From Squalus acanthias (taxonomy: Eukaryota), in NCBI GenBank assembly GCA_030390025.1, contig CM059432.1:79672001-79736000 (forward strand): a stretch of DNA of 64,000 nt, written 5' to 3'. The notes beneath the pieces were generated by a model, which worked only from the letters and a program-made list of their open reading frames with translations, ran no database searches and was not told the DNA's origin. Position 1 is the stretch's first letter. Each line of letters opens with the position of its first letter. Shown here piece after piece: positions 7,428 to 62,400 of this stretch. Both the position numbers and the translations under genes were made by a program.

Positions 7428-7945
7428 AAAATTCATTCTTGGGATATCGGCGTCGCTGGCAAGGCCAAAATTTATTGCTAGTTGCCCTTGAGAAGGTGGT
7501 GGCCCTTTTTGAATCGCTTCAGTCCACGTGGTGAAGGTACTCCCAGAACACTGTTAGGTAGGGAGTTCCAGGATTTTGACCTAGTGATGATGAATGAACA
7601 ATATATCTAAGTTGGCATGGTGTGTGACTTGGAGGGGGACTTAGAGGTGGTGGTGTTCCCATGCATCTGCTTCCCTTGTCCTTCTAGGTGGTGGAGGTCA
7701 CAGGTTTGGGAGATGCTGCCAAAGAAGCCTTGGCACGTTGCTGCAGTGCATCCTGTAGATAGTACACACTGCAGTATGCTGGTGGAGGGAATGAATGTTT
7801 AAGCTGGTGGATGGTGTGCCGATCAAGCGGACTGCTTTGTCCTGGATGGTGTTGAGTATTGTTGCAGTTTCACCCTTCCAGGCAAGTGGAGAGTATTCCA
7901 TCACACTCCTGACTTGTGCCTTGTAGGTGGTGGAGGGATTTTGAC
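7428..7945 (-). mobile_element. 5'-truncated copy of the LINE family seen at 10329-13523
   Basis: Encodes MMEYSPLAW...DKAVRLIGTPS...; shares the 3' tail. Confidence 0.85.
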
Positions 7946-8199: not shown

Positions 8200-11100
8200 T
8201 CCTCCTGGAGGGGGAGCTTGCACACGAGTTCTGCTGCAGAAGAATCAGATGAGCACTTCGATGGGGCAGGCTACAAAAGAAGGCTGATGTATTGGATAGC
8301 CTGCCAGAAAGCCTGTGTTCAATGTCAAGAAGCATGGAGTAGACCGGCACCAAATTGGCGCAGAGCTTGGAGCCTATCCTTTCCAGCATGGAAGTGCTGA
8401 CCAACTCCATTAGTGCACTTGTGGATCCAACCATGATGCAGTGTCTGATGGCTGATGTCTCAGCTTCCATTGCAGCACAAGCAGCAGTCACCCAACGTCT
8501 GAGTGCTGCAGTGGAAGCTCAGAGTGCTGCCATCATGGCTCTGGACTCTAGTGTTAAAGAAACTTGCAGGGTGTCACAGCAGTTCAGCAATCTTTCCTCC
8601 AATAGATTACTAGGATTGCTGAGGTGCCGCCCCGGGGGAGTGCCAGTGGCTCCATGGAGCACGAATCTGCTGTCCTCTCAGGATGACAGTGCCCTTGCTG
8701 TTGCCTGTCAGCCAGCCAGCCCAGACTGCTGCCGCCCATGTCGAGATGGTGCAGTCTGCAGCCGGGCCTTCTAGGCCCAAAGCTGCTTGAGGTTGTCCTC
8801 CAAGGCCATCTGCAGTGTCCTCCACAAAGTCAGCAGCCTTCCACCAGCCATGCTGTAGCCACTGGGGTAGTACAGCGTAAGGGCACTTGGCCTGGCGCAG
8901 GCACTAAGGGAATGCACAAGGATGATTAGTTGACGTTTGTATACAATATAGTATGATTTGATTTATAAATTTGGTTTGGAATGTTTATTTTGTGTTGGCT
9001 TTTATTTTTGCATTGTGACCGGTGATCAGCTTTGAATACAGCAGGACTTGAGAATGAACAGAGGGCATGCAGAGGGCATCGCTGTGATGGCCAGTGACTG
9101 AGGGAAGGTAAGGTGTGGTACGGTTGGTGAATGGGAATTGGGGTTGTGGTTACCAGCAATGTTCCCCTAATTTTTTTTTTTGGATGTGCAGCCCCTTCAC
9201 AGTTTCGTGCATGTGCGAAATTTAACATTAGAAAAGCCATCCTTTTTGTCATGGTGGTTCAAATGCAGATAGCATAGCAGACTGCTGCAGAATGAAGGCA
9301 TCATGACAGCTGCCAGGATGCCGGGCATTGACCTGCATAATTCGCTGCCTATGGCCGCACAACAGCTGGATGTTGAGGGAGTGGAATACCTTTCAGTTCC
9401 GGTACATCAGAGTTGACTTGCGGCACCTGCAAAGTGATGTACGTGCAGTCAATTGCACCCTGCACCATGGGGAAGCCTGCAATCCTAGCAAAGCCGTGAG
9501 CTTGCTCCGCCTGCTACTGTCTGGCAAGAGAGAATGACCTCTTTAAATAGAGAGCCTCAGTGACCTCCCTTACGCAACAGTGGATGGCAAACTGCGAGAT
9601 GTTGCAAATATCTTCAGCTCCAGCCTGGAAGGAGCCAGATGCATAAAAGTTCATCACCACGGTCACCCTCACAGCCACTGGCAATGCGGTCCTTGCCCTG
9701 CATTGAGGTTACAGTTGTGGCTGCAGCAGGTAGCAGATTTCAGTGAGGACGTCCTTACTGAAGCGCAGACACCTCACACGTTGTTCCTCGCTGAGGTTTA
9801 GGTAGGAGAATTGCTTCCTGAACACCCTAGGCGGATATGGCCTCCTGATGAGAGCCTTTCTCGCCCCTTGTCCTGCTCTGCATGCCCTCTGTTCATTCTC
9901 AAGTCCTGCTGTATTCAAAGCTGAATTCCTACTAGTGCACCCATGTCTGGCAGCAAGTGGTTTGTGCAGAAGCCTTGAACGCAGGAAACAGTCCTTCAGC
10001 ACCTGCCACACCTCCCTGTAGACTTTGGCAACTTTAAACAACTGTAGAAAGCACCAAACACTTGTAGAACTGTAGCTACTAACCTGTAAGTAGTTGATGA
10101 TCCCTTTAAATAGCGCTGGTGGGGCTCCTTCCTGCTGTTGAACGTCTGCTCAGTTGTGGGAGGTTAAGAGAGGGCGTTAGCTTGAGCATTGAGCTCCAAA
10201 ATGGCAGCGCTGGCATCAAATCAGCGTTGCACGCTGATTGACGTCATAATCTGCCTGCTCTGCATACTTCCGGCGGGCGTTCACTGCGCACGCTAACGCA
10301 CTCAGGAATATGCCATCTTTCAAAAAAATTTTTTTATGGGATGTGGGCATCGCTGGCAAGGCCAGCATTTATCGCCCATCCCTAATTGCCCTTGAGAAGG
10401 TGGTGATGAGCCGCCGCCTTGAACCGCTGCAGTCCGTGTGGTGAAGGTACTCCCATCATAGGTAGGGAGTTCCAGGATTTTGACCCAGCGACGATGAAGG
10501 ATCGGTGATATACTTCTAAGTCAGGATGGTGTGTGACTTGGAGGGGAACTTGGAGGTGGTGGTGTTCCCATACACCTGCTGCCCTTGTCCTTCTAGATGG
10601 AAAAGGTTGCGGGTTTGGGAGGTGCTGCCGAAGAAGCCTTGGTGAGTTGCTGCAGTGCATCTTGTAGATGGTACACATTGCAGCCACGGTACACCGGTGG
10701 TGGAGGGAGTGAATGTTTATGGTGGTGGATGGGGTGCCAATCAAGCGGGCTGCTTTGTCCTGGATGGTGTCGAGCTTCTTGAGTGTTGTTGGAGCTGCAC
10801 TCATCCAGGCACACTCCTTACTTGTGCCTTGTAGATGGTGGAAAGGCTTTGGGGAGTCAGGAGGTGAGACACTCACTGCTGTATACCTAGCCTCTGACCT
10901 GCTCTTGTTGCCACAGTATTTATGTGGCTGGTCCAGTTAAGTTTCTGGTCAATGGTGACCCCCAGGATGTTGATGGTGGGGCATTCGGCGATGGTAATGC
11001 CGTTGAATGACAGGGGGCGGTGGTTAGACTCTCGCTTGTTGGAGATTGTCATTGCCTGGCACTTGTGTGGTGCGAATGTTACCTGCCACTTATAAGCCCA

Positions 11101-13631
11101 AGCCTGAACGTCGTCCAGGTCTTGTTGCTTGCGAGCATGGACTGCTTCATTATCTGAGGAGTTGTGAATGGTACTGAATGCTGTGCAGTACATCCCCATT
11201 TCTGACCTTATGTCGGAGGGAAGGTTATTGATGAAGCAGCTGAAGATGGTTGGGCCTAGGACACTGCCCTGAGGAACTTCTGCAGCGATGTCCTGGAGCT
11301 GTGATGATTGACCTTTGACCATCTTCCTTTGTGCTAGGTATGACTCCAGCCAGTGGAGAGATTTCCCATTGACTTCAGTTTTACTAGGGCTCCTTGATGC
11401 CACACTCGGTCAAATGCTGCCTTGATGTCAAGGGCAGTCACTCTCATCTCACCTCTGGAATTCAGCTCCTTTGTCCATGTTTGGACCAAGGCTGTAATGA
11501 GGTCAGGAGCTGAGTGGTCTTGGCGGAACCCAAACTGGGCATCAGTGAGCAGGTTATTGGTGAGTAAGTGCCGCTTGATAGCACTGTTGATGACACCTTC
11601 CATCACTTTGCTGATGATTGAGAATAGACTGATGGGGTGGTAATTGACTGGATTGAATTTGTCCTGCTTTTTGTGGACAGGACATACCTGGGCAGTTTTC
11701 CACATTGTTGGATAGATGCCAGTGTAGTAGCTGTACTGGAACAGCTTGGCTGGAGGTGCGGCTAGTTCTGCAGCACAAGTCCTCAGCACGATAGCCGGGA
11801 TGTTGTCGGGGCCCATAGCCTTTGCTGTATCCAGTGCGCTCAGCCGTTTCTTGATATCACGTGGAGTGAATCGAATTGGCTCAAGACTGGCTTCTGTGAT
11901 GGTGAGGATCTCCGGAGTAGGCCGATATGGATCATACACTTGGCTCTTCTGGCTGAATATGGTTGCAAACGCTTCAGCCTTGTCTTTTGCACTCACCTGC
12001 TGGGCTCCACCATCATTGAGGATGGGGATATTCATGGAGCCTCCTCCTCCCGTTAGTTGTTTAATGGTCCACCACCATTCACGACTGGATGTGGCAGGAC
12101 TGCAGTGCTTTGATCCTTTGATTGTGTGATCGCTTAGCCCTGTCTATAGCATGTTGTTTCCGCTTTTTAGCATGCATGTAGTCCTGTTTTGCAGCTTCCC
12201 TAGGTTGGCACCTCTTTTTTAGGTACGCCTGGTGCTGCTCCTGGCATGCTCTTCTCCACTCCTTACTGAATCAGGGTTGGTCCCCTGGCTTGATGGTAAT
12301 GGTAGAGTGAGGGATATGCTGGGCCATGAGGTTACAGATTGTGGTGGAATACAATTCTGCTGCTGCTGATGGCCCACAGCGCCTCATGGATGCCCAGTTT
12401 TGAGCTGCTAGATCTGTTCTGAATCTATCCCATTTAGCGCGGTGGTAGTGTCACATAACCCGATGGAGGGTGTCCACAATGACTGTGCGGTGGTCACTGC
12501 TACCAATACTGTCATGGACAGATGTATCTGCGACTGGTAGATTGGTGAGGATGAGGTCGAGTAGGTTTTTCCCTCGTGTTGATTCTCTCACCACCTGTTG
12601 CAGGCCCAGACTGGCAGCTATGTCCTTCAGGAGTCAGCCAGCTCGGTCAGTAGTGGTGCTACCGAGCTACTCTTGGTGATGGACATTGAAGTCCCCCACC
12701 CAGAGTACATTCTGTGCCCTTGCTACTCTCAGTGCTTCTTCCAAGTGGCTGTTCAACATGGAGGATTACTGATTCATCAGCTGAGGGTCAGCGGTAGGTG
12801 GTAATCAGCAGGAGGTTTCCATGCCCATGCTTGACTTGAAGCCATGAGACTTCATGGGGTCCGGAGTCAATGTTGAGGACTCCCAGGGCCACTCCTTCCC
12901 ATACCACGGTGCCGCCACCCCTGGTGGGTCTGTCCTGCCAGTAGGACAGGACATACCCAGGGATGGTGATGGAGGAGTTTGGGACATTGGCTGAAAGGTA
13001 TGATTCTGTGAGTATGAATATGTCAGGCTGTTGCTTGACTAGTCTGTGTGACAGTTCTCCCAATTTTGGCACAAGTCCCCAGATGTTAGTGAGGAGGACT
13101 TTGCAGGGTCGACTGGACTGGGTGTGCCGTTGCCGTGTCCGTAGTCTGTGCCGAGGTCGATGCTGGGTGGTCCGTCCGGTTTCATGCTTATTATTGTGTT
13201 TCGTAGCGGTTTGTTACAACTGAGTGGCTTGCTAGGTCATTTCAGAGGGAAGTTAAGAGTCAACCACATTGCTGTGGGTCTGGAGTCACATATAGGCCAG
13301 ACCAGGTAAAGGTGGCAGATTTCCTAAAGGACATTAGTGAACCAGATGGGTTTTTACAACAATCTGATAGTTTCATGGTTACCATTACTGATACGACTTT
13401 TTTTTATTAACTGAATTTAAATTCCCCAGCTGCCGTGGTGGGATTTGAACTCTCATCTCTGGATCATTAATCCAGGCCTCTGGATTACTAGCCCAGTGAC
13501 ATTACTACTATGCTACCGTTCCCTCACGCGATTCGCCTCAAGTGTGCGAGCGTGCCCTGTGTGCCATTTTTGAGCTCCAAGGGCACTCATAGCACCCAAA
13601 AAACGGGCACTACGATCTGAATTTTGCGCCC
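8200..13631. mobile_element. Degenerate PIF/Harbinger transposon (partner ORF remnants + 8200-8930; transposase remnants - ~9280-10040) interrupted by a LINE
   Basis: Minus strand encodes RRPYPPRVFR...FYASGSFQ...GFPMVQGAIDCT...PGSCHDAFILQQS with stops and frameshifts. Terminus ...CTGAATTTTGCGCCC at 13631. Left boundary uncertain. Confidence 0.8.
10329..13523 (-). mobile_element. Apparently full-length single-ORF LINE (APE endonuclease + RT; CR1/L2 group, Crack/Daphne-like, clade unresolved) with tRNA-like 5' head; ORF disrupted
   Basis: EN motifs TNIWGL, DIFILTES, DRPTRGGG (12788-13100). RT motifs [35 protein letters not shown] (10873-12035). A-rich 3' tail at 10329. Box A at 13505-13515, box B at 13441-13450. 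Confidence 0.9.
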
Positions 13632-13720
13632 TTTGTTTCCATTCGGCTGAACTGTGCTTAGTCATAGAGCCAACATTTTAATTTATAAATTTAAATGTTG
13701 TTAAAGGTACTTTGCTGACA

Positions 13721-15705: not shown

Positions 15706-18700
15706 CAACAACAACAACCTGCATTTATAAGGTGCCTTTAACGTAGCAAAACATCCCAAGGTGCTTCACGAGTGCATAATCAGACAAAAATTGACAGTGA
15801 GACATTAGGACAGGTGACCAAATGCTTGGTCAAAGAGGTAAATTTTAAGCAGTGTCTTAAAGCAAGAGAGAGAGGTGGAGAGGTGAAGAATTTTAGGGAG
15901 GGAATTCCAGAGTTTATGGATTAGACGGCTGAAGGCACACTCGCCAATGGTGGGGAGAAGGAAGAAAGAGGCCAGAGTTGGAGGAACGCAGAGTTGGTGA
16001 GAGTTAGGACACGGGCAGCCGAGTTTTGAATTACCTCAAGTTTACGTAGGGTAGAACGTGGGAGGCCAGCCAGGAGTGCATTGGAATCATCAAGTCTAGA
16101 GGTAACAAAGGCATGGATGAGGGTTTCAGCAGCAGATGAGCTGAGGCAGGGGCGGAGACGGGCGATGTTACGGAGGTAGAAATAAGCGGATGTAGGTCGT
16201 AAGCTCATTTCAGGGTCAAATATGACACCAAGGTTGCGAACAGTGTGGATCAGCCTCAGACAGCTGCTAGGGAGAGGGATGGAGTCAGTGGCTAGGGAAC
16301 GGAGTTTGTGGTGGGGACCGAAAATCATGGCTTCGGTCTTCCCAATATTTAGTTGGAGAAAATTTCTGCTCATCCAGTACTGGATGTCGGACAAGTAGTC
16401 TGACAATTTAGAGACCGTGGAGGGGCTGAGGTAAAGCTGGGTGTCGTCAGCGTACATGTGAAAAGTGACGCTGTGTTTTCGGATGATGTCGCCAAGGGGC
16501 AGCATGTAAATGAGAAATAGGAGGGGGCCAAGGATAGATCCTTTGGGGACACCAGAGGTAAAGATGCGAGAGCGGGAAGAGAAGCCAATACAGGTGATTC
16601 TCTGGCTACGATTAGATAGATAAGAATGGAACCAGGTGAGTGCAGTCCCACCCAGCTAGATGACGATGGAGAGGCATTGGAGGAGGATGGAGTGGTCACC
16701 TATGTCAAAGGTTACAGACAAGTCGAGAAGGACGAGGAGGGATAGTTTACCTTTGTCGCAGTCATAAAGGTTGTCATTTGTGACTTTGATGAGAGCTGTT
16801 TCGGTACTGTGGCGGGGCTGAAATCTGATTGGAGGCATTCAAACATGGAGTTTCGGGAAAGATGGGCACGGATTTGGGAGTCAACAACACGCTCAAGGAC
16901 TTTGGAGAGGAAAGGGAGGTTGGAGATGGGGTGGTAGTTTGCAAGGATGGTGGGGTCAAGGGTTGTTTTTTTGAGGAGAGGGGTGATGACGGCAGATTTG
17001 AAGGAGAGGGGGACAGTACCTGAGGAGAGAGAACCGTTAACAATGTCAGCTAACATGGGAGCCAGAAAAGAAAGTTGGGTGGTCAGCAGTTTAGTGAGAA
17101 TAGGGTCGAGGGAGCAGGAAGTGAGTCTAATGGACAAGATGAGCACGGAGAGGTCATGAGGCGAGATTGGAGAGAAACTAGAGAAAGATGCGCGGGCAGG
17201 GGGGAACCTGAGAGGAAGTTTGGCCCAGTGGGCATGGGGAAGGAAGGGAAGTGGCAGAAGCAGCTGATTGGATGGTCTCAGTCTTGGAGACAAAGATGTC
17301 AATGAGCTCCTCGCACTTGTTGGAGGTGAACATAAGAAATAAGAGCAGGAGTAAGCCATACAGCTCCTCAAGCCTGCTCCGCCATTCAGTAAGATCATGG
17401 CTGATCATCGACCTCAACTGGAGGAAACAGAGGAGAGGGGTTTAAGAAGACGGTTAGCAGTAGAGAATAGAAGCCGGGGTTATCTTTGCATTCTAGAATG
17501 ATTCTGGAATAGTGAGCAGTTTTGGCAGATGAGAGCAGGACCCGATGATGCTTTGTGATCCAGCCAGATCTGGCAGTGAATGGCTAAACCAGTTGTCCAC
17601 CATATCCGTTCAAATCTGCATCCCTTGGACTTAAGGGAGCGAAGATGAGGGCCGTACTGGGGCAACGGCCAGGGTGAGAGAGAGTAATTGTTTTAATAGT
17701 GACTAGGGCATCAAAAGTGGTGGTGAGGGTGTGGTTGAGCAGATCGGTAGCAGAAATGTCGTGGTGAATGGAGGGCCAGTTGGGATTTCGTAATTGCAGT
17801 TATAAGAGAGTTGGGAGAGAGTTTTTTCCCGGGGCGGACACAGAAGAAGTAGGTTTGGGGGATGTGGGTGGAGAGCGATAAAAGGAAGTGATGGCCTTAT
17901 CTGCGATTGACATGATGGGAGTAGCGAGGCCACAAGATGGCAAGGTCGAGGGTTGGCCGTGAATATGGGTTGGGGAGTTTACATGGAGGGAGAGATTAAG
18001 GGAGGATAGGAGGCTAGTGAACTCAGAGGAGAGAGAGCATAATGAATTAAGATGGAGGTTGAAATCACCGAGGATGAGAAGTCGCTCGGTGCTGAGGGTG
18101 GAAAGCAGTGAAGATATCTCGGTGATAACATTTTTATGGTACTTGGGTGGGTGGTAGAGAACGAGAATTTTAAATGAGAGGTGAGAGGGGTGGAATAAGA
18201 TGAGATGCTCAAAGGAGGAGAAAGTGCCGGAGGAGTAGGGGGACAGACCAAGGTGTGATTTGGTGATGAGAGCCGCACTGCCACCATGGCAGTCTGGACG
18301 GGGCAAGTGGTGGACGGTATAGCCAGGTGGGGAGGCTTCATTTAAGGGTAAGGTGTCATTAAACCTCAGCCAAGTTTCCGTCAGGGCCATGATGTCGATG
18401 CAATCATCCACGATAAACTCATGGATATTCGCAAGTGAACGGATGTTCTGGAGGGAGATGTGGAGAGGGTCGGTGATGACTGACCCATTGCCAGCGTCCA
18501 CAGGGTTAGTGCTGGAAGGGGTGAGTTGGACGAGGAGGAGATTGGCAAGATTAGCCTCCAGCGGATGTGCTGGACGGGAAGGTCGGCGAGAGAGTAGGAT
18601 GGGGCAGTTGGGGTTGCTGCTCGTGAGGAGGCTGCGACGAGTGCTACGGTGGGCCTTTCGGAGAATGCCAAGAGAGGCACAGAGGGAAGCTGTACGCATA

Positions 18701-26264: not shown

Positions 26265-27960
26265 TAGAATCATACAGCATAGAAAGGGACCATTCGGCCC
26301 ATCGTGCCTGTGCCAGCTCTTTGAAAGAGCTATCCAATTAGTCCCACTACCCTGCTCTTTCTCATAGCCCTGCAAATTTTTACTTTTCAAATATTTATCC
26401 AATTCCCTTTGAAAGGTACTATTGAATCTACTTCCACGACCCTTTCAGGCAATGCATTCCAGATCATTACAACTTGCTGCGTAAAAAAAAAAAAAAAATT
26501 GTCCTCCTCTCCCCTCTGGTTGTTTTGCCAATTACCATAAATCTGTGTCCTCTGGTTACTGACTCTCCTGCCAGTGGAAACAGTTTCTCCCAATGTACTC
26601 TATCAAAACCCCTCAATTTTTAACACCTCTATTAAATCTCCCCATGACCTTCTCTGCCCCAAAAGAGAACAATCCTAGCTTCTCTAATCTCTCCACATAA
26701 CTGAAGTCCCTAATTTCTGTTACCATTCTAGTAAATTTTTTTGCACCTTCTCCAAGGCCTTGACATCCTTCCTAAAGTGTGGTACCCAGAATTGAACACA
26801 ATACAACAGTGTGATGAAAGATGTGATTGACTGTGCTATCAAGCGGCACTTACCAATAACCTGCTCACCGATGCTCAGTATAGGTTCCGCCAGGTCCACT
26901 CTACTCCAGACCTCATTACAGCCTTGGTCTAAACATGGACAAAAGAGCTGGATTCCAGAGGTGAGGTGAGAGTGACTGCCCTTGACATCAAGGCAGCATT
27001 TGAACGAGTGTGGCATCAAGGAGCCCTAGTAAAATTGAAGTCGATGGGAATCGGGGAAAACTCTCCACTGCCTGGAGTCATATCTAGTACAAAGGAAGTG
27101 TCTCACCTCCTGACTCCCCAAAGCCTTTCCACCATCTACAAGGCACAAGTCAGGAGTGTGATGGAATATTCTCCACTTGCCTGTATGAGTGCAGCTCCAA
27201 CAACACTCAAGAAGGTCTACACCATCCAGGACAAAGCAGCCTGCTTGATTGGCACCTTATCCACCACCTTAAACACTCACCCCCTGCATCACCGGCGCGC
27301 TGTGGCTGCAGTGTGTACCATCTACAAGATGCACTGCAGTAACTCGCCAAGGCTTCTTTTTGTCAGCACTTCCCAAACCCGTGACCTCTACCATCAAGGG
27401 CAATTAGGGATAGGCAATAAAGGCCTTGCCAGTGATGCCCACATCCCATGAATGAATTAAAAAAAAAAACTGAGGCCTAACCAGTGATTTATAAAGGTTT
27501 AGCATAACTTCCTTGTTTTTATACTCTAGGCTTCTATTTATAAAGCCAAAGGTCCCATATGCTTTTTTAACAGCCTTTTCTACTTGTCCTGCCAGCTTCA
27601 AAGATTTGTGCACGTAAACCCCCAGGTTCCTGCACTCTCTTTAAAATTGTACCATTTAGTTTATATTGCCTCTCCTCATTCTTCCTTCCAAAATGCATCA
27701 CTTCACACTTCTCTGCATTAAATTTTATCTGCCCAGTTCACCAATATGTCTATGTTCTCCTGAAGTCTGCTGCTATCTTCCTCACTGTTTTACTACATTT
27801 CTGACTTCCGTGTCATCTGCAAACTTTGAAATTATGCTCTGTATACCCCATTCCAGGTTATTAATATATATCAAAAGGAGCAGTGGTCGTAATACCCTGA
27901 GGTTACCACTGTATACTTCCCTCAGTCTGTAAAACAACCGTTCACCACTACTCTCTGCCA
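26265..27960 (-). mobile_element. CR1 3' fragment, interrupted at 26810-27469
   Basis: YCVQFWVPHFRKDVKALE and EVMLNLYKSLVRPQ are contiguous once the insert is removed. Confidence 0.85.
26810..27469 (+). mobile_element. Internally deleted copy of the tRNA-headed LINE family, nested in CR1
   Basis: MRVTALDIKAAFERVWHQG...; 3' tail ...GCCCACATCCCATGAATGAATT(A)n. Confidence 0.85.
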
Positions 27961-40719: not shown

Positions 40720-43700
40720 GTGGAATTTTTTGAGGTTGTAACTAGCAGGGTACAATGTTCCCTCTAATTTTTTTTTATACTGAGCGGGCCACGAACTCCT
40801 TTTTTTCTGTGGGCAAATTTTACGACAACAACAACAACTTTTTACAATAACAACTTTTACAAAAACGCCAGCAACCACTTAAAAGCCTATATACAGTAAT
40901 GCCATATTGCCACCCCACAGTCTCAAATCATGAGACAATCAGACAAGGTTCTATACAAGTTTAACATAATTTCTCTGCTTTTGAATTCCATTCCTCTCGA
41001 ACCCCAGTGCTTTATTTGCACTTTTATGGCTTTTTGAACCTGCGTTGCTACTTTTAATGATTTGTGAATCTATACCCCTCGATCCCTTTGCACCTCTACT
41101 CCATTTAGACTCTTATTTTCCAAGGAGTAGGTCGCCTCCTTATTCCTCCTACCAAAATACACCACCTCACACTTATCTATATTGAAATTCATTTGTTATT
41201 TACATGCTCATTCTGCAAGTTTGTTTACGATAGAATTAATTAAAAGCTTTTACAAACTTGTACAAACTCTATTTAAAAAAAAAAAAATTACTTGTCAGAA
41301 ATGACTGGGATATAAAATAACTGCATAATAATGCATTAACACTTCAGAAACGCCACTCAGTTACACGGTTGTGCATCGACAAACAATCCAAAAGCCCAAG
41401 GTGAGCTGAAAGAGGCATATCCATCCAATTTGTATTAATTTTAAAATTTTCAACGTATTAGCTCATCCCTCATGTCACTATAGCAATGGCTGCACAAGCA
41501 GCAGGAGGAGCAGCTTTCCTATAGCGCTGACGGCTGGATGTCCACATAAGTAATTAGAATATTATTCACAATGCAACCAGACACTCAGCAAATATAAAGT
41601 GCTGTAGTTCTTTAGTTTACAGTATTAAAAAGAATTGAACAAAAACGGGTATTTTCAACTTCAATCACTTCCATTAATAAACGTTGTCTTCTTGAACCAG
41701 CACACCCCCCCCCCCCGCCCCCACGTAACATGTCAGAAATGTAGCACTTATTCACAAGTGCAGAAAAACACATACACAATTTGTGTCACCGAATTAAGAA
41801 CAACAAGCCGGAAAAGCTATGATTTAACAGAAATAAACATTCATTTTTCTTCCTGGACAGAAGAACCAATCGGACTGACTTGGAAATGTTTACTAGTATG
41901 GTGACGTAAAGATGTTAATTTACAAATTTTGCTTCTAATGTTTTGCTCTCAAACATTCTCCACAATATTAATCCCTGCGCTTAAGAGTAAGGAAGTCTTG
42001 CTACAATTGTACAGGCTTTGGTGAGACCACATCTGGAGTACTGTGCACAGTTTTGGTCTCCTTATCTGAGGAAGGATATACTTGCCTCAAAGGCAGTACA
42101 ACAAAGGCTTCACTAGATTGATCCCTGGGATGAGAGGGTTGTCCTATGAGGAGAGATTGAGTAGATTGGGCCTATACTCTCCGGAGTTTAGAAGAATGAG
42201 GTGATCTCATTAAAAATATACAAGATTCTGAGGGGATTGACAGGGTAGATATTGAGAGGTTGTTTCCCTTGGCTGGAGAGTCTAGAACTAGGGGGTATAG
42301 TCTTCGGATAAGGGGTTGGCCATTTAGTACGGCGATGAGGAGGAATTTCTTCACTTAAGAGGGTTGTGAATCTTTGGAATTCTCTACCCCAGAGGGCTGT
42401 GGATGCTCAGTTGTTGAGCATATTCAAGGCTGAGATAGATAGATAGATTTTTGGATTCTAAGGGAATACAAGGATATGGGATCGGGCGGGAAAGTGGAGT
42501 TGAGGTCGAAGATCAGCCATGATCTTATTGAATGGTGGAGCAGGCTTGAAGGGCTGTATGGCCTACTACTGCTCCTAAGAACATTCTTATGTTCTTAAGC
42601 GAAGTGTTTCAGCCTTTGCTTGTTAAAATTGGGGACCAAAGTGAATGGCTCAAAAACTGGTGTCAAATCAAACAATTGATCCAAAAGCATTTGAGCCTCA
42701 AAGGGTAGCAGTTATATTTGGGTTAAGTACTGCAGAATCATTGACATCATTGGCACGACAGTTTTTTTTAAAAGAGCCCTTGTAAAGGGGGACTGATTTT
42801 CTGGTAATGCTTGCATTTTTGGCTAACACCCATGCCTGGACCCTCTGACTAATGACTTGTTTGGCTGGTTAATGTAGCCATACTGGCTGCTTTGCATAAA
42901 CCAGGCTGTGAATGAGGAAATTCTTGACATCAGGGGCCATTTTTGGGGCAGATGGAAGCTCTGTCTCAAACAAGTCCCCACAGAAACTACCAACATAGGC
43001 TGAGACCTGTTGGATCCATGTCCTGATACAATTTTTGGCCTCTCCAAAGGACTTCCAGGGGACTTACCAGTGTGGCCAATAGCCCTGCAGATTAGTAAGA
43101 TGATGTTTCTTTAACTTAACACTACGCTTGTTACTGGCCAGGATTGCGTGCTGAGGTACTTACTGACTTGCCTTTCTTTGACTGTCTAATAACCCACTCG
43201 GGCCGCACTCTCACTCCCGTGGCACACTGAAGCTTCGCGCTGGCGACGCTGACTGGAGGCGGCATTTGCGCGGTAACCGCCCCTCAGTGACAGCCGTCTG
43301 ATTGGCAAGCCAGTGTGATTGGCAGGCCAGACCAGCCACTGACGTGCGTCGGGAGGGTCCCACCTTCTCTTTCCACTGATTGACCGGGGAACCCTGGTTG
43401 AGAGAGCCTGCAAATGCACGTCAGTGGCTGGACAGGCCTGCCAATCATACGGCTGCTTGTGAGGTGTGGTTACCGCGCAGCTGCCTGCCTCGAGTCAGCA
43501 TCCCCGGCGCGAAGCTTTAGTGTGCCGCGGGAGCGCGAGTGCGTGGCCCGCTTATTTAACTGCGTGGCCTAATCAAGAGTGCTGCGCGGCTGCGCACGCG
43601 TGCAGCTTAGGGGGGAACAGTGGCAGGGTAGATAAGGGCGAACCAGTGAATGTAGTGTATTTGGATTTTCAAAAAGCATTCAATAAGGTGCCACACGAGA

Positions 43701-44835
43701 TTATTGCACAAAATTAGGGCTCATGGAATTGGGGTAATATATTGGCATGGATTAAGGATTGGTTAGCGGACAGAACAGAGAGTAGGAATAAATGGTTAAT
43801 TTTTGGGTTGGCAGGCTGTAACTAGAGGAGTACCGCAAGGATCAGTGCTTGGGCCTCAGCTATTTACAATATGTATCAATGACCTTAGATGAGGGGACTG
43901 AGTGTAATGTATCCAAGTTTGCTGACGATGCAAAGTTAGGTGGGAAAGTAAGCTGTGAGGAGAATGCAAAGAGGCTGCAAAGGGACAAGTTAAGTGAGTG
44001 GGCAATAACATGGCAGGCGGAATATAATGTTGGGAAGTGTGAAGTTATCCACTTTGGTAGGAAAAATAGAAACGCAGAATATTTTTTAAATGGTAAGCTC
44101 CTGGGAAATGTTGGTATTCAGAGGGACCTGGGTGTCCTTGTACACAAATCACAGAAAGATAACATGGAGGTACAGCAAGCAATTAGGAAAAGCAAATGGT
44201 ATGTTGGCCTTTATTACAAAGGGATTGGAGTATAAGAGTAAAGAATTCTTACTACAACTATATAGGACCTTGCTGAGACCGCACCTGGAGTACTGTGTAC
44301 AGTTTTGGTCTCCTTACCTAAGGAAGGATATACTTGCCGTAGAAGGAGTGCAACAAAGGTTCACCAGACTGATTCCTGGGATGAGGGAATTGTCCTATAA
44401 GGAGAGATTGAGTAGACTAGGTTTATATTCCCTAAAGTTGAGAAGAATGAGAGGTGATCTCATTGAAACATATAAAATTCTCAAAGGGCTTGACTGGGTA
44501 GATGCTGGGTGGTTGTTTCCCCTGGCTGGGGAGTCCAGAACTAGCTGTCACAGTCTCAGAATAAGGGGTCGACCATTTAGGACTGAGATGAGGAGAAATT
44601 TCTTCACTCAGAGGGTGGTGAATCTTAGGAATTCTCTACCCCAGAGAGCTGTGGATGCTCAATCGTTGAGTATATTCAAGACAGAGAACGATAGATTCTT
44701 GGATACTCAGGGAATCAAGGGATATGGGGATAGTGCGGTAAGGTGGAGTTGAGGTAGAAGATTAGCCATGATCTTATTGAATGGCGGAGCAGGCTCGAAG
44801 GGCCGAATGGCCTACTCCTGCTCCTAGTTCTTATG
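40720..44835 (+). mobile_element. CR1 3' fragment split by hAT element
   Basis: EFFEVVTSRV (to 40752) continues as [17 protein letters not shown] from 43631; ORF 44090-44752. Confidence 0.9.
40753..43622. mobile_element. Non-autonomous hAT transposon, 2870 bp, containing CR1 fragments (~40930-41230 -, ~41980-42595 +)
   Basis: Perfect 8-bp TSD GCAGGGTA (40745-40752, 43623-43630); TIRs CAATGTTCCCTCTAA / TTAGGGGGGAACAGTG. Confidence 0.9.
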
Positions 44836-46787: not shown

Positions 46788-46980
46788 TGTTCCTTCATAG
46801 TCGCTGGGTCAAAATCCTGGAACTCCCTCCCTAACAGCACTGTGGGAGTACCTTCACCACATGGACTGCAGCGGCTCAAGAAGGCGGCTCACAACCACCT
46901 TCTCAAGGGCAATTAGGGATAGGCAATAAATGCTGGCCATTAACCAATCCTCAATCCATCCTGGCAACGAATTAAAAAAA
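46788..46980 (+). mobile_element. 3' end of the tRNA-headed LINE family
   Basis: CACCTTCTCAAGGGCAATTAGGGATAGGCAATAAATGCTGGCC tail. Confidence 0.85.
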
Positions 46981-47379: not shown

Positions 47380-48770
47380 GTGTAATAGACTAAGTGGCGA
47401 CAAATCCCCTGGACCTGATGACCTGCATCCTAGGGTTATAAAAGAGGTAGCTGCACAGATATTAGATGCACTGGTATTAATCTTCCAGAATTCCCTAGAT
47501 TCTAGAACAGTCCCCAAGGATTGGAAGGTAGCAAACCTAACCCCGCTATTTAAGAAAGGAGGAAGAGAAAAAAACGGGGAACTATAGGCCAGTTAGCCTG
47601 ACATCAGTAGTAGGCAGAATGCTAGAATCTAGTATTAGGGACGTGGTAACAGGGCACTTAAATCATAATATGATTAGGCAGAGTCAACATGGTTTTATGA
47701 AAGGGAAATCGTATTTGACAAATTTATTAGTTTTTTGAAGATGTAACTAGTAGGATGGATAAGGGGGGAACCAGTGGATGTAGTGTATTTGGATTTTCAA
47801 AAAGCATTCGATAAGGTGCCACACGAGGTTATTACACAAAATTAGGACTCATGGTATTGGGGGTAATATATTAGCATGGATTGGTTAATGGACAGAAAAC
47901 AACAGAGTAGGAATAAACGGGACTTTTTCAGGTTGGCAGGCTGTAACTAGTAGGGTACCGCAAGGATCCGTGCTTGGGCCTCAGCTATTTACAATCTATA
48001 TTAATGACTTAGATGAAGGGACGGAGTGTAACGTATCCAAGTTTGCTGATGATACAAAGTTAGGTGGGAAAGTAAGCTGTGACGAGGACGCAACGAGACT
48101 GCAGAGCGATATAGACAGGTTGACTGAGTGGGCAAGAACATGGCAAATGGAATACAATGTGGGGAAGTGTGAAGTTATGCACTTTGGTAGGAAAAACAAA
48201 AAAGCAGAATATTTTTTGAATGGTGAGAGACTGGGAAATGTTTGCACTCAGAGGGACCTGGGTGTCCTTATACATGAATCACAGAAAGTTAACATGCAGG
48301 TACAGCAAGCAATTCAGCAAGCAATTAGGAAAGCAAATAGTATGTTAGCTTTTGTTACAAAGGGATTAGAGTATAAGAGTAAAGAAGTCTTACTACAGTT
48401 ATACAGGGCATTGGTGAGACCGCACCTAGAGTACTGTGTACAGTTCTGATCTCCTTGCCTAAGGAACAACATACTTGCCTTAGAGGGAGTGCAGCGAAGG
48501 TTCGCTAGACAGGTTCCTGGGATGAGGGGATTGCCCTATGAGGAGAGATTGAGTAGATTAGGCCTATATTCCTTAGAGTTTAGAAGAATTGAAACATATA
48601 ACATTTTTAAGGGGCTTGACAGGGTTAATGCTGAGAAAATGTTTCCCCTGGCTGGGGAATCTAGAACATGGGGTCACAGTCACAGAATAAGGGGTAGGCA
48701 ATTTAGGACTGAGATGAGGAGACATTTCTTCACTCAAAGGGTTGTGAATCTTTGAAATTCTCTACCCCAC
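47380..48770 (+). mobile_element. CR1 ORF2 fragment
   Basis: KSPGPDDLHPRV, SKFADDTKLGG, RPHLEYCVQF. Confidence 0.92.
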
Positions 48771-54189: not shown

Positions 54190-56225
54190 GTAGAATCATA
54201 CAGCACAGAAGGAGGCCATTCGGCCCATCGTGCCTGTGCTGGCTCTTTGGTAGAACTATCCAATTAGCCCTGCTCCCCTGCTCTTTCCCCCTAGCACTAT
54301 AATTATATTCTCCAAGTATTTATACAGTTCCCTTTTGAAAGTTGTGATTGAATATACTTCCACCACACTTTTAGGTTGTGCATTCCAGATCACAACAACT
54401 CATTGCGTAAAAAAAAAATGTCCTCAGGTTGCCTCTGATTCTTTTGTCAATCATCTTAAATCTGTGTTCTCTACCAACCATTCTGCCACTGGAAACCGTT
54501 TCTCTTTATTTCCTCTCAAAACTGTTCATAATTTTGAACACCTCTATCAAATCTCCTCTTAACCTTCTCTGCTCTAAAGAAGAACAACCCCAGCTTCTCC
54601 AGTCTCTCGACATAACTGAAGTCTCTCATCCCTGGTACCAATCTAATAAATCTCTCCTGCAGTCTCTCTAAGGCCTTGACATCCATCCAAAAGTGTGGTG
54701 CCCAGGATTGAGCACAATACTTCAGCTGAGGCTTAACCAGTGCTTTATAAAAGGTTTAGCAGAACTTCCTTGCTTTTGTACTCTCTGACTCTATTAATAA
54801 AGCCATGGATCTCATATGCTTTTTTAACAGCCTTCTTAACTTGTCCTGCCACCTTCAAAGATTAGTGTACATATGCCCCTCTGTTCCTGCGCCCTCTTTA
54901 AAATTGTACCATTTAGTTTATATTGCCTCTCCTCATTCTTCCTACTAAAATGCATCACTTCACACTTCTCACATCTGCCATATGTCTGCCCATTTCACCA
55001 GTCTGTCTATGTCCTCTTGAAGTCTATTACTATCTGCCTCATTGTTTACTACATTTACGAGTTCTGGTGTCATCAGCAAACTTTGAAATTGTGCCCTGTA
55101 TACCCAAGTCCAGGTCATTAATATATATCAAAAACAACAGTGGTCCCAACACTGACCCCTGGGGGACACCACTGCACACTTCCCTCCCGTCTGAAAAACA
55201 ACCATTCACCACTACTCTCTGCTTTCTGTTCCTTAACCAGTTTTGTATCCATGCAGGCACTGCTCCTTTAATCCCATTGGCTTCAATTTTGCTAACAAGT
55301 CTATTGTGAGTTACTTTATCAAACGCCTTTTGAAAGTCCATATACACATCAACCGCACTACCCTGATCTACCTTCTCTTTAACTTCATCAAAGAACTCAT
55401 TCAATTTAGTCAAACACGATTTGCCTTTAATAAATCCGTAGTGGTTTTTATTTATTAACTCGTATTATGATCACTGTTCCCCAACTGCTCCCGTACTGAA
55501 ACATGCTCCACTTGTTCTACTTCATTCCCCAGAACTAGATCCAGCACTGTTTCCTTCCTCTTTGGGCTGGGAACACAGTGATCAAGAAAGTTCTCTTGTA
55601 CACATTTCAGGAATTCCTCCCCCTCTTTGCCCTTTACACTGTTACTATCCCAGTCTATATTAGGAGAATTGAAGTCCTCCACTATCACTACTCTAATCAC
55701 ATACATCTTTCTGTAATTTGCCTGAAAATTTGCTCCTCAATCTCCTTCCCACTATTTAATGTCCTATAGTATACACCCAGTAGCATAATAACTCCTCTAT
55801 TGTTCCTTAATTCTAACCAAATAGATTATGTCTTTCAACTACATCATCCCTCTCCAGTACTATAATAGTTTTGTTGATCAGTACTGCCACCCCTCCTCCT
55901 TTTTCCCCTTCCCTATCTTTCCTGAATACCTTGTAGCCAGGAATATTAAGGTCCCAATCCTCCCATTCTTTGAGCCAGGTCTCTGTTATTGCCACTTTGT
56001 CATAGTCCCATGTGGTGTCTTGTGCTGCAGCTCATCAACCTTATTTACCATGCTACGTACATTTATGCACATGCGCTCCAAGCCTATCTTAGACTGCCTT
56101 ACATTTGCCACCTGTCTGATCCCTCCTGTTTCTGAACTAGTGCTATTTGTCTCTCCCAGTTCTCTGCGCACCTTGTTTCTCCTGTCACATGTTTCATCCT
56201 GGTGCCCATCCCTCTGCTAAATTAG
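54190..56225 (-). mobile_element. CR1 ORF2 (EN + RT) with internal deletion near 55460
   Basis: [64 protein letters not shown]. Confidence 0.9.
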
Positions 56226-57029: not shown

Positions 57030-57490
57030 TTTTTAAATCATTCTTTGGGATGTTGGTGTGGCTGGCAAAGCTGGCATTTATTGCCCATCCCTGCTTGCCC
57101 TTGAGAAGGTGGTGGTGGGCCTTTTTGAACCGCTATAATCCATGTGATTAAGGTAATCTCAAAATGCTATTAGATAGGGAGTTCAAGATTTTTGATCCAG
57201 TGACTATGAAGAAATGGCGATATATATGCAACATGCATGCAGAGCTCCTAGAAGCACACCTTATTGTGATATGCTAACTGCAACATAGCTTAGTTCTCTC
57301 ATAAGAACATAAGAACTAGAAGCAGGAGTAGGCCATTTAGCCCCTCGAGCCTGCTCCGCCATTCAATAAGATCATGGCTGATCTTCTACCTCAACGCCAC
57401 TTTGCTCCACTATCCCCATATCCCTTGATTCCCTTAATATCCAAAAAATCTATCGATCTCTGTCTTGAATATACTCAATGACTGAGCCTC
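57030..57490 (-). mobile_element. LINE 3' ends (tRNA-headed family ~57030-57230; CR1 ~57300-57490)
   Basis: Tails match copies elsewhere in the window. Confidence 0.8.
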
Positions 57491-59409: not shown

Positions 59410-62400
59410 AAACATAGAAACATAGAAGATAGGAGCAGGAGTAGGCCATTCGGCCCCTTGAGCGTGTTCCGCCATTTAATGAGATCATGGCTGATCATCC
59501 AAATTCAGTACCCTGTCCCTGCTTTCTCCCCATATCCCTTGATCCCTTTAGCCGTAAGAAATATATCTAACTCCTTCTTGAACATATTTAATGAATTGGC
59601 CTCAACTGCCTTCTGTGGTAGAGAATTCCACAGGTTCACCACTCTCTCGGTGAAGAAATTCCTCCTCATCTCAGTCCTAAATGGCTTACCCCTTATCATT
59701 AGACTGTGACCCCTGGTTCTGGACTCCCCCGCCATCGGGAACATCCTTCCTGCATCTAGTCTGTCTAGTCCTGTTAGAATTTTATAAGTTTCAATGAGAT
59801 CCCCTCTCATTCTTCTAAACTCTAGCGAATATTAGCCTAATCGACCCAATCTCTCTTCATACGTCATTCCTGCCATGCCAGGTATCAGTCTGGTGAATCT
59901 TCGCTGCACTCCCTCCATGGCAAGAACATCCTTCCTCAGATAAGGCGACCAAAACTGCACACAATACTCAAGGTGTGGTCTCACCAAGGCCCTGTACAAC
60001 TGCAGCAAGACATCCTTGCTCCTGTACTCGAATCCTCTCGCTATGAAGGCCAACATACCATTTGCCGCCTTAACCGCCTGCTGCACCTGCATGCTAACCT
60101 TCAGCGACTGGTGCACAAGGACACCCATGTCTCGTTGCACTTCCCCTTTTCCCAATCTATTGCCGTTCAGATAATAATCTGTCTTCCTGTTTTTGCCACC
60201 AAAGTGGATAACCTCGCATTTATCCACATTATTCTGCATCTGCCATGCATCTGCCCGATCACCCAACCTGTCCAAATCATACTGGAGTTTCTCTGCATCC
60301 TCCTCACAACACACATGCCCACCCAGCTTTGTGTCATCTGCAAACTTGGAGATATTACATCTAGTTCCCTCGTCTAGATCATTAATATATATTGTGAATA
60401 GCTGGGGTCCTAGCACCGATCCCTGCGTTACCCCACTAGTCACTGCCTGCCACTCGGAAAAAGACCCGTTTATTCCAACTCTTTGCTTCCTGTCTGCCAA
60501 CCAGTTCTCTATCCAAGTCAGTACCTTACCCCAATCCCATGTGCTTTAACTTTGCACGCTAATCTCTTATGCGGGACCTTATCGAAAGCCTTTTGGAAGT
60601 CCAAATACACCACATCCACTGGCCTTATCTATCCTACCAGTTACATCCTCAAAAAATTCCAGTAGATTAGTCAAGCATGATTTACCTTTTGTAAATCCAT
60701 GTTGACTTTGTCCGATCCTGTCACTGTTTTCCAAGTGCTCTGCTATTGCATCTTTTATAATGGACTCTAGCATTTTCTCCACTACCGATGTCCGGCTTAC
60801 CGGTCTATAATTCCCCGTTTTCTCTCTACCACCTTTTTAAAATAGTGGGGTTACATTAGCTACCCTCCAATCCATAGGAACTGTTCCAGAGTCCATAGAA
60901 TTTTGGAAGATGACCAGCAATGCATCTACTATTTCTAGGGCCACTTCCTTAAATATCCTAGGATGTAGATTATCAGGCCCCGGGGATTTTCGGCCTTCAA
61001 TCCCGTCAATTTCCCTAACACCATTTCCCTACAAATACTGATTTAATTCAGTTCCTCCCTCTCATTAGACCCTATGTTCCCCGACATCTCTGGGAGGTTT
61101 TTTGTGTCCTCCTTTGTGAAGACAGAACCAAAGTATGTATTTAATTGGTCTGCCATTTCTTTGTTCCCCATTATAAATTCCCCTGATTCTGACTGCAAGG
61201 GACCTACACTTGACTTCACCAATCTTTTTCTCTTCACATATCTATAGAAGCTTTTACAGTCAGTTTTTATGTTCCCTGCAAGCTTACTCTCATATTCTAT
61301 TTTCCCCCTCTTAATTAATCCCTTTGTCCTCCTTTGCTGAATCCTAAACTGCTCCCAATCCTCAAGTTTGCTGCTTTTTCTGGCCAATTTATATGTCCTC
61401 TCCTTGGATCTTATGCTATCCCTAATTTCCCTTGTTAGCCACGGTTGAGTCACCTTTTTTGTTTTATTTTTATGCCAAACAGGAATGAACAAATTCTGTA
61501 GTTCATCCATGCGATCTTTAAATGTTTGCCATTGCCTATCCACCATCAACCCTTTAAAGTAATGTTCCCCAATCCATCCTAGCCAACTCGCGCCTCATAC
61601 CATCGTAGTTTCCTTTATTTAAATTAATGACCCTAGTCTCTGAGTCAACTACTTCACTCTCAATGAAGAATTCGATCATATTATGATCGCTCCTCCCCAA
61701 GGGGCCTCGCACAACAAGATTGCTAATTAACCCTTTCTCATTACATAATACCCAGTCTAAGATGGCCTGATCTCTAGTTGGTTCCTCGACATATTGGTCC
61801 AGGAAACCATCCCGTATACACTCTAGGAATTCCTCCTCCACAGTATTGTTACTAATTTGGTTAGCCCAATCTATATGTAGATTAAAGTCACCCATGATAA
61901 CTGCTGTGCCCTTATTGCATGCGTCTCTAATTTCCCATTTAATGCCATCCCCAACCTCAGCATTACTGTTTGGGGGTCTGTATACAACTCCCACTAACGT
62001 TTTCTGCCCCTTGGTATTTCTCAGCTCTACCCATACAGATTCCACATCATCAGAGCTAATATCCTTCCTTACTATTGTGTTAATCTCCTCTTTAACCAGC
62101 AATGCTACCCCACCTCCTTTTCCTTTTTGTCTGTCCTTCCTGAATATTGAATACCCCTGGATGTTGAATTCCCAGCCTTGGTCACCCTGGAGCCATGTCT
62201 CCGCCAATTATATCATATCCGTTTACATCTATTTGCGCAGCTAATTCATCCACCTTATTACGAATGCACCTCGCATTAAGGCACAAAGCCTTCAGGCTTG
62301 TTTTTTTAACACTCTTAGACCTTTTAGAATTATTATTTACTGTATCCCTGTTTGATTTAAACCCTTGATTTCTCTGCCTTCCACTTTTGCTTTTCTCCTT

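Follow-up and report, generated by a model that had tools for sequence, protein, structure and literature searches.

The present analysis deals with a long interspersed nuclear element (LINE) in a 64,000-nucleotide (nt) stretch of the Squalus acanthias genome (GenBank assembly GCA_030390025.1, contig CM059432.1, positions 79,672,001–79,736,000 of the forward strand), hereafter called the window. The copy in the window is a dead, decayed full-length member of an abundant 3.3-kb LINE family of sharks and rays. Judged by its first 400 letters, this family is the already catalogued SquAca_Zenon-1 of Stuart et al. 2026 (PMC13343379); here and below, statements on cited papers refer to excerpts of them. 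The family is therefore known, and its tRNA-derived head is real, family-wide and conserved across sharks and rays. Head, leader and a single endonuclease-reverse transcriptase (EN-RT) open reading frame (ORF) move together as a unit, at thousands of loci and across five species of sharks and rays. The features of the sequence incline the balance slightly towards a head that acts as an internal RNA polymerase III (Pol III) promoter for the whole 3.3-kb coding RNA, as had been supposed in an earlier sequence-only reading of the window.

A tRNA-like head joined to one reading frame

A family majority was built from 19 aligned copies, namely the window copy and 18 full-length copies, each of which lies 3.2–6.6% from it. 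The majority contains an open frame that is 973 codons long and encodes the motifs GDFN and FADD. Only about 330 nt precede this frame, and the longest other frame there has 99 codons, which leaves no room for an ORF1 and agrees with the earlier claim that none is present. The claim that the leader runs into one APE-RT frame holds for the majority, whereas in the window copy, which is 4.5% off the majority, frameshifts and stops have split the frame into five pieces and the FADD motif is lost. There, head and leader together span about 310 nt before the EN-RT frame. Both box-like motifs noted earlier were found again on the minus strand (Table 1), and the A-rich tail is likewise borne out: it reads A7 then T7 in the window copy (10335–10322), and an A run of at least 4 stands at the tail in 116 of 130 3' ends. 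Target-site duplications were no longer than mismatched controls in 25 copies.

The linkage of head and frame is not unique to the window. A query made of head and endonuclease (EN) matched 39 other places among 40 scored, at 87–90% identity. The 5' end is fixed, as 26 of the 29 fetched copies start at 13520–13526, and none shares the upstream flank, the flanks being unrelated. When 34 loci were extended, 26 reached the tail, 16 of these in one alignment. Because such a query selects for linkage, head-only and EN-only queries were also run. The head-only query returned 29 loci, of which 26 continue into the ORF, two are short elements of head plus tail, and one is cut by another repeat. The 29 loci of the EN-only query represent nine separate insertions, all extending up into leader or head, and no other shared 5' end was found among these nine. 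Additionally, when exact 18-mers were counted in the genome, the leader-ORF junction occurred 4,015 times and a site in the 3' part of the ORF 62,738 times, with 0 for the controls. Target-primed reverse transcription is established for LINEs, and the ratio of the 3' to the junction count is the 5'-truncation gradient expected of it. In contigs of four other runs, whose derivation from RNA is a guess, the depth of head and leader is much greater than that of the ORF, and a single contig, from run X13, spans the junction.

Some of these loci have peculiarities of their own. Twenty-one EN-only loci (within L269–L297; C29 and many small contigs) are near-identical copies of one insertion amplified with its flank; leader nt 135–300 are deleted in it, and it lies in a larger repeated unit with at least 21 copies. 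Three unrelated copies (L198, L212 and L222) are 5'-truncated at nearly the same leader position (majority nt 271–273), possibly a pause site for reverse transcription. In L002, L004, L005, L019 and L026, the 5' part lies beside an inverted downstream part.

Copy by copy the head is weakly tRNA-like, and across copies as a set the likeness is above chance. On the window-copy head, ARAGORN called no tRNA, and the Rfam tRNA model scored 20 bits (E = 0.21), below the gathering score. Over 34 heads, ARAGORN called 5 at its default score against none of 102 shuffles, and 22 against 2 at a relaxed score. In two old copies, L225 (66–80% identity) and L229 (83%), leader and endonuclease are preceded by a shorter head of tRNA length, and these heads score 26 and 27.5 bits with the Rfam model, also below gathering. 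An extra hairpin is present in the head of young copies and missing in older ones. When head, leader and tail of one copy were folded as single strands, z-scores ranged from -1.25 to +1.28, nothing beyond shuffles. A tRNA-Ser parent of the head, considered on account of an anticodon-arm motif, was not upheld: the motif had 209 matches, and of 12 fetched, those inspected were heads of the element, with one called as tRNA-Ser.

The same head is also found on a multi-copy element of about 430 bp, which consists of the head, the leader and the last ~100 nt of the Zenon LINE. Thirty copies were aligned, with a mean divergence of 7%, and several share flanks. One short-element junction has 213 exact matches; other junctions occur at L101 and L117, and another in runs X10 and X13. 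The simplest reading is that internal deletions in the LINE have given rise to short elements more than once. Originally, the head probably passed in the opposite direction, from a short interspersed nuclear element (SINE) or a tRNA to the LINE. L256 and L257 are older short elements with a standard-length head that lacks the extra hairpin, and L257 also has a LINE-type tail. The ~430-bp element may be an already named SINE; a motif search in the supplement of PMC7245038 gave no match.

Candidate Pol III transcription and its alternatives

Transcription by Pol III is inferred from the positions of the boxes, the scarcity of T runs and the SINEs with the same head. Pol III terminates at T runs. 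On the coding strand of the majority there is no TTTT before the tail, compared with 15 AAAA runs, and the 19 decayed copies carry 0–2 TTTT each. The absence of TTTT has P = 0.02 by mononucleotide shuffling. With codon use kept, TTT occurs 5 times against 11.3 expected (P = 0.003–0.004), and AAA, CCC and GGG are as expected. The majority of an older layer also has no TTTT, and a single TTT against 7.9 simulated (P = 0.0006); this majority, built from 36 pieces, is about 12% different, with an excess of synonymous changes (124 vs 100). It is noisy, as 4 stops show, and, being aligned to the young majority, may lean towards the young sequence. CR1 majorities of the same genome hold 5–7 TTTT per 1.0–1.4 kb, and L2 holds 1 in 0.9 kb.

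Further signs were considered and set aside. A T run of at least 4 precedes the A tail in 21 of 116 tails, compared with 1 of 125 A runs in the flanks and none of 116 after the tail; it was not counted as a Pol III terminator, because such runs can grow after insertion (PMC9599045), a point that itself speaks against Pol III. Selection against TTTT was sought at 38 sites one change away in 207 young pieces, where the T frequency of 0–4% is like background and uninformative. Depletion of Phe was rejected as a sign of T avoidance: it was strong in comparison with proteins P0004 and P0009, but disappeared when the closest relative, P0003, or four LINE frames from metagenomes served as the reference.

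Several other observations also weigh against a Pol III promoter. With codon use kept, the absence of TTTT is not significant (0 vs 1.9 expected, P = 0.11). Of the three independent LINE controls from metagenomes, one (L155/L156, a single family) likewise has an ORF free of TTTT, as has the short L2 control. Another metagenome control is low in TTT (P = 0.03), CR1 is mildly so (P = 0.07), and Phe is low in the closest protein relative too (15 vs 17). Moreover, the acceptor stem of the head is poorly paired, and the fold of the head does not stand out from shuffles (z = -1.2). Finally, the processivity of Pol III has been cited as the reason why SINEs stay at 100–700 bp (PMC10886601).

Under the Pol III proposal, an early elasmobranch Zenon would have acquired its head through a template switch to a tRNA-derived SINE or to a tRNA. 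TFIIIC would bind the A and B boxes, and Pol III would start about 8 nt before the A box and read through the TTTT-free ORF. The RNA would be uncapped, and its translation would need a non-standard start, which is proposed because no in-frame AUG precedes the endonuclease: the first in-frame Met of the majority comes only at codon 287. The EN-RT protein would then copy the RNA from its tail by target-primed reverse transcription, and internal deletion would repeatedly yield ready-made SINEs. In 8 of the 9 copies that could be scored (10 of the 19 could not), an AUG shortly before the endonuclease lies in another frame than the EN-RT ORF. This AUG was also seen by eye in Zenon consensuses of five elasmobranch species. 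It opens a frame of about 48 codons (window 13185–13040; majority nt 363 onward) that overlaps the start of the endonuclease, and this short frame may have a role in frameshifting or reinitiation.

Reviews split the two classes by polymerase, with LINEs assigned to Pol II and SINEs, short and non-coding, to Pol III (PMC3531059, PMC10886601). If the proposal is true, a high-copy, long-lived coding element on a Pol III promoter would break this rule, would allow the processivity of Pol III over 3 kb and the translation of uncapped RNA to be tested, and would supply a second route to the origin of SINEs. Even with transcription by Pol II, a fixed tRNA head matters for annotation, as the 5' ends can be mistaken for SINE insertions.

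The strongest alternative, which is nevertheless judged rather unlikely, is that the head was captured once and that Pol II, as in other LINEs, makes the full-length RNA from a promoter lying within head or leader. Pol II is named as the polymerase of LINEs in the literature (PMC10886601, PMC5786205), and the Zenon tail carries AATAAA and poly(A), whereas the 5' end lies at the expected Pol III start in five species. The boxes would be kept mainly through exchange of 5' ends between SINEs and the LINE, and 5'-end switching is a known LINE habit (bioRxiv 2022.11.04.512097), but in this genome the junction of the LINE is commoner (4,015) than the single SINE junction that was counted (213), which means that the head does not belong to SINEs alone. 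The scarcity of T would be compositional, in keeping with a coding strand of only 20% T and with the TTTT-free ORF of an unrelated control family; however, TTT is the only one of the four homotriplets to be depleted, and it is depleted in the older layer as well.

A distinctly less probable account makes the head a processing signal, with read-through RNA from a host promoter cut by RNase P at the tRNA-like 5' end. The ribozyme of R2, which gives a precise 5' start, serves as the analogy. Such cutting would account for the sharp 5' boundary and for an uncapped RNA without an in-frame AUG, yet it offers no reason for the avoidance of T runs, and the acceptor stem is poorly paired, although the hairpin arms are kept across species (by eye). 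The idea that a SINE landed by chance before a truncated LINE at the window locus can draw on the free SINE with the same head, but it is refuted, and left with next to no probability, by the 4,015 exact junction matches and by colinearity in independent loci, old copies and five species.

Relation to catalogued families

Published Zenon consensuses were compared by eye over their first 400 letters each. The majority shows about two differences from SquAca_Zenon-1, so the family, whose catalogue status the sequence-only reading had left open, is already known as an elasmobranch Zenon. The Zenon LINEs reported from sharks, rays, coelacanth and hagfish all lack ORF1 and end in poly-A tails (PMC13343379), and the missing ORF1 is thus a trait of the Zenon clade, not a peculiarity of the window element. 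The elasmobranch Zenons (SquAca_Zenon-1/2/3, CarCar, RhiTyp, ScyCan and HypSab_Zenon-1) agree with the present family in the 400-letter match, in length (3,314 vs about 3,310), in the single EN-RT ORF without ORF1 and in the poly-A tail. The head stands at the start of each of seven consensuses, which come from five elasmobranch species, have the A- and B-box motifs and contain no TTTT in 400 letters. Two hagfish entries and one coelacanth entry open differently and have T runs. The head is likely an elasmobranch gain, since elasmobranch Zenons have it, the hagfish and coelacanth ones do not, and derivatives of the lepidopteran Zenon are stated to be without tRNA homology. The head, the T-run scarcity and the matching SINEs are not remarked on in the published description as excerpted; the words 'tRNA' and 'promoter' have no match in the main text of PMC13343379, nor has 'tRNA' in the supplement, and the tRNA head of the catalogued family was apparently left unremarked there.

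In a tree of reverse transcriptases that includes no named Zenon reference, the protein falls beside three unnamed proteins (0.975) and is separate from CR1 and L2 of the same genome. A metagenome scan returned distant LINEs only (25–40% identity). Pieces of the Zenon protein occur at 68–85% identity in gene models of three named elasmobranchs. In P0001, P0002 and P0005–P0008, pieces of this reverse transcriptase lie within predicted elasmobranch proteins whose names are unrelated (aldo-keto reductase, anoctamin-7, DMBT1-like), probably as gene-model artefacts.

Other known systems share some of these traits. In Lepidoptera, too, a Zenon with one ORF is accompanied by a short, internally deleted derivative, Persaeus, in which its 5' and 3' ends are joined (Wang et al. 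2019, PMC6740152). Persaeus is stated to be without tRNA homology or a Pol III promoter, whereas the shark LINE has a tRNA-derived 5' end of its own, and therefore its deletion products would be SINE-like from birth. Like the ~430-bp elements, tRNA-derived SINE2 elements, including the bipartite Bov-tA (Kojima 2018, PMC5786205), consist of an A/B-box head, a body and a LINE-derived tail. In the Bov-tA-type model, a LINE first loses its ORF and then receives the head, whereas in the shark it is the coding element that carries the head. RTE-1_DAn and relatives (PMC5786205) are LINEs noted to have tRNA-like sequence; compared by description only, they belong to the RTE clade, and the excerpt states neither its position nor a role of Pol III. 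SacSINE1 and the CmiSINEs with L2-2_CM (Luchetti et al. 2017, PMC5499810) are tRNA-headed SINEs of cartilaginous fishes with similar length; their tail is described as L2-derived, and they are set apart by this description only. By usual definitions a SINE is short (<700 bp) and non-coding, which the 3.3-kb EN-RT element is not and its ~430-bp derivatives are; the tRNA-derived 5' head with A and B boxes that marks SINE2 is present on the Zenon LINE, weakly in each copy. No Pol III-driven autonomous LINE was found described in the literature searched, a scope that leaves out most subscription papers, Repbase and Dfam.

The window copy and its surroundings

Table 1. Coordinates of the Zenon copy and of the host repeat in the window
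Feature	Position	Strand	Basis or remark
Zenon (CR1-group) LINE, decayed full-length copy	10322..13523	-	alignment; first 400 letters of majority vs SquAca_Zenon-1 by eye
tRNA-derived head: A-box/D arm, anticodon-like hairpin, second hairpin (missing in older copies), T arm/B box	13435..13523	-	
A-box-like motif TAGCATAGTAG, begins at +9 of element	13505..13515	-	
B-box-like motif GAGTTCAAATCC	13441..13452	-	
Leader (SINE-body equivalent), common to ~430-bp short elements	13215..13434	-	
Conserved AUG, out of frame with EN-RT ORF, opens short overlapping frame	13183..13185	-	
Single EN-RT reading frame	10382..13213	-	majority: 973 codons between stops, in-frame Met only from codon 287
APE-type endonuclease region, end approximate	12470..13102	-	GDFN motif 12696-12685
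Reverse transcriptase	10954..11672	-	Pfam RVT_1, E about 1e-13 on two pieces
3' UTR with AATAAA and A/T tail, common to short elements	10322..10381	-	
Host repeat upstream of insertion	13524..13635	-	empty sites in related loci
Host repeat downstream of insertion, broken transposase-like frame	9235..10318	-	empty sites in related loci

On the N-terminal piece of the window copy, the Pfam Exo_endo_phos match is weak (E = 0.045). The copy had been described as one block inside a Harbinger subterminal region. Its insertion into another repeat stands, as the two host flanks adjoin without the LINE in 10 of 14 related loci, and it lies about 105 nt from the end of similarity to the host repeat. From motifs in its translation, we take that repeat to be a Harbinger-like transposon with a putative DDE_Tnp_4 transposase, the upstream flank being the end of the transposon; this label found no backing in Pfam or PDB, in which the pieces of the host-repeat frame (52–63 aa) had no match.

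The window also holds many CR1-like and L2-like LINE fragments (43621–44835, 47402–48769, 54191–55222, 59413–60989 and 15921–16655), which served only as controls for T runs. Furthermore, four 5'-truncated pieces of the same Zenon family are present at 7428–7934, 26811–27458, 46791–46938 and 57035–57224 (75–88% identity). The piece at 7428–7934 had been considered as a separate family, which was rejected, as its best matches are 93–97% to the main Zenon family.

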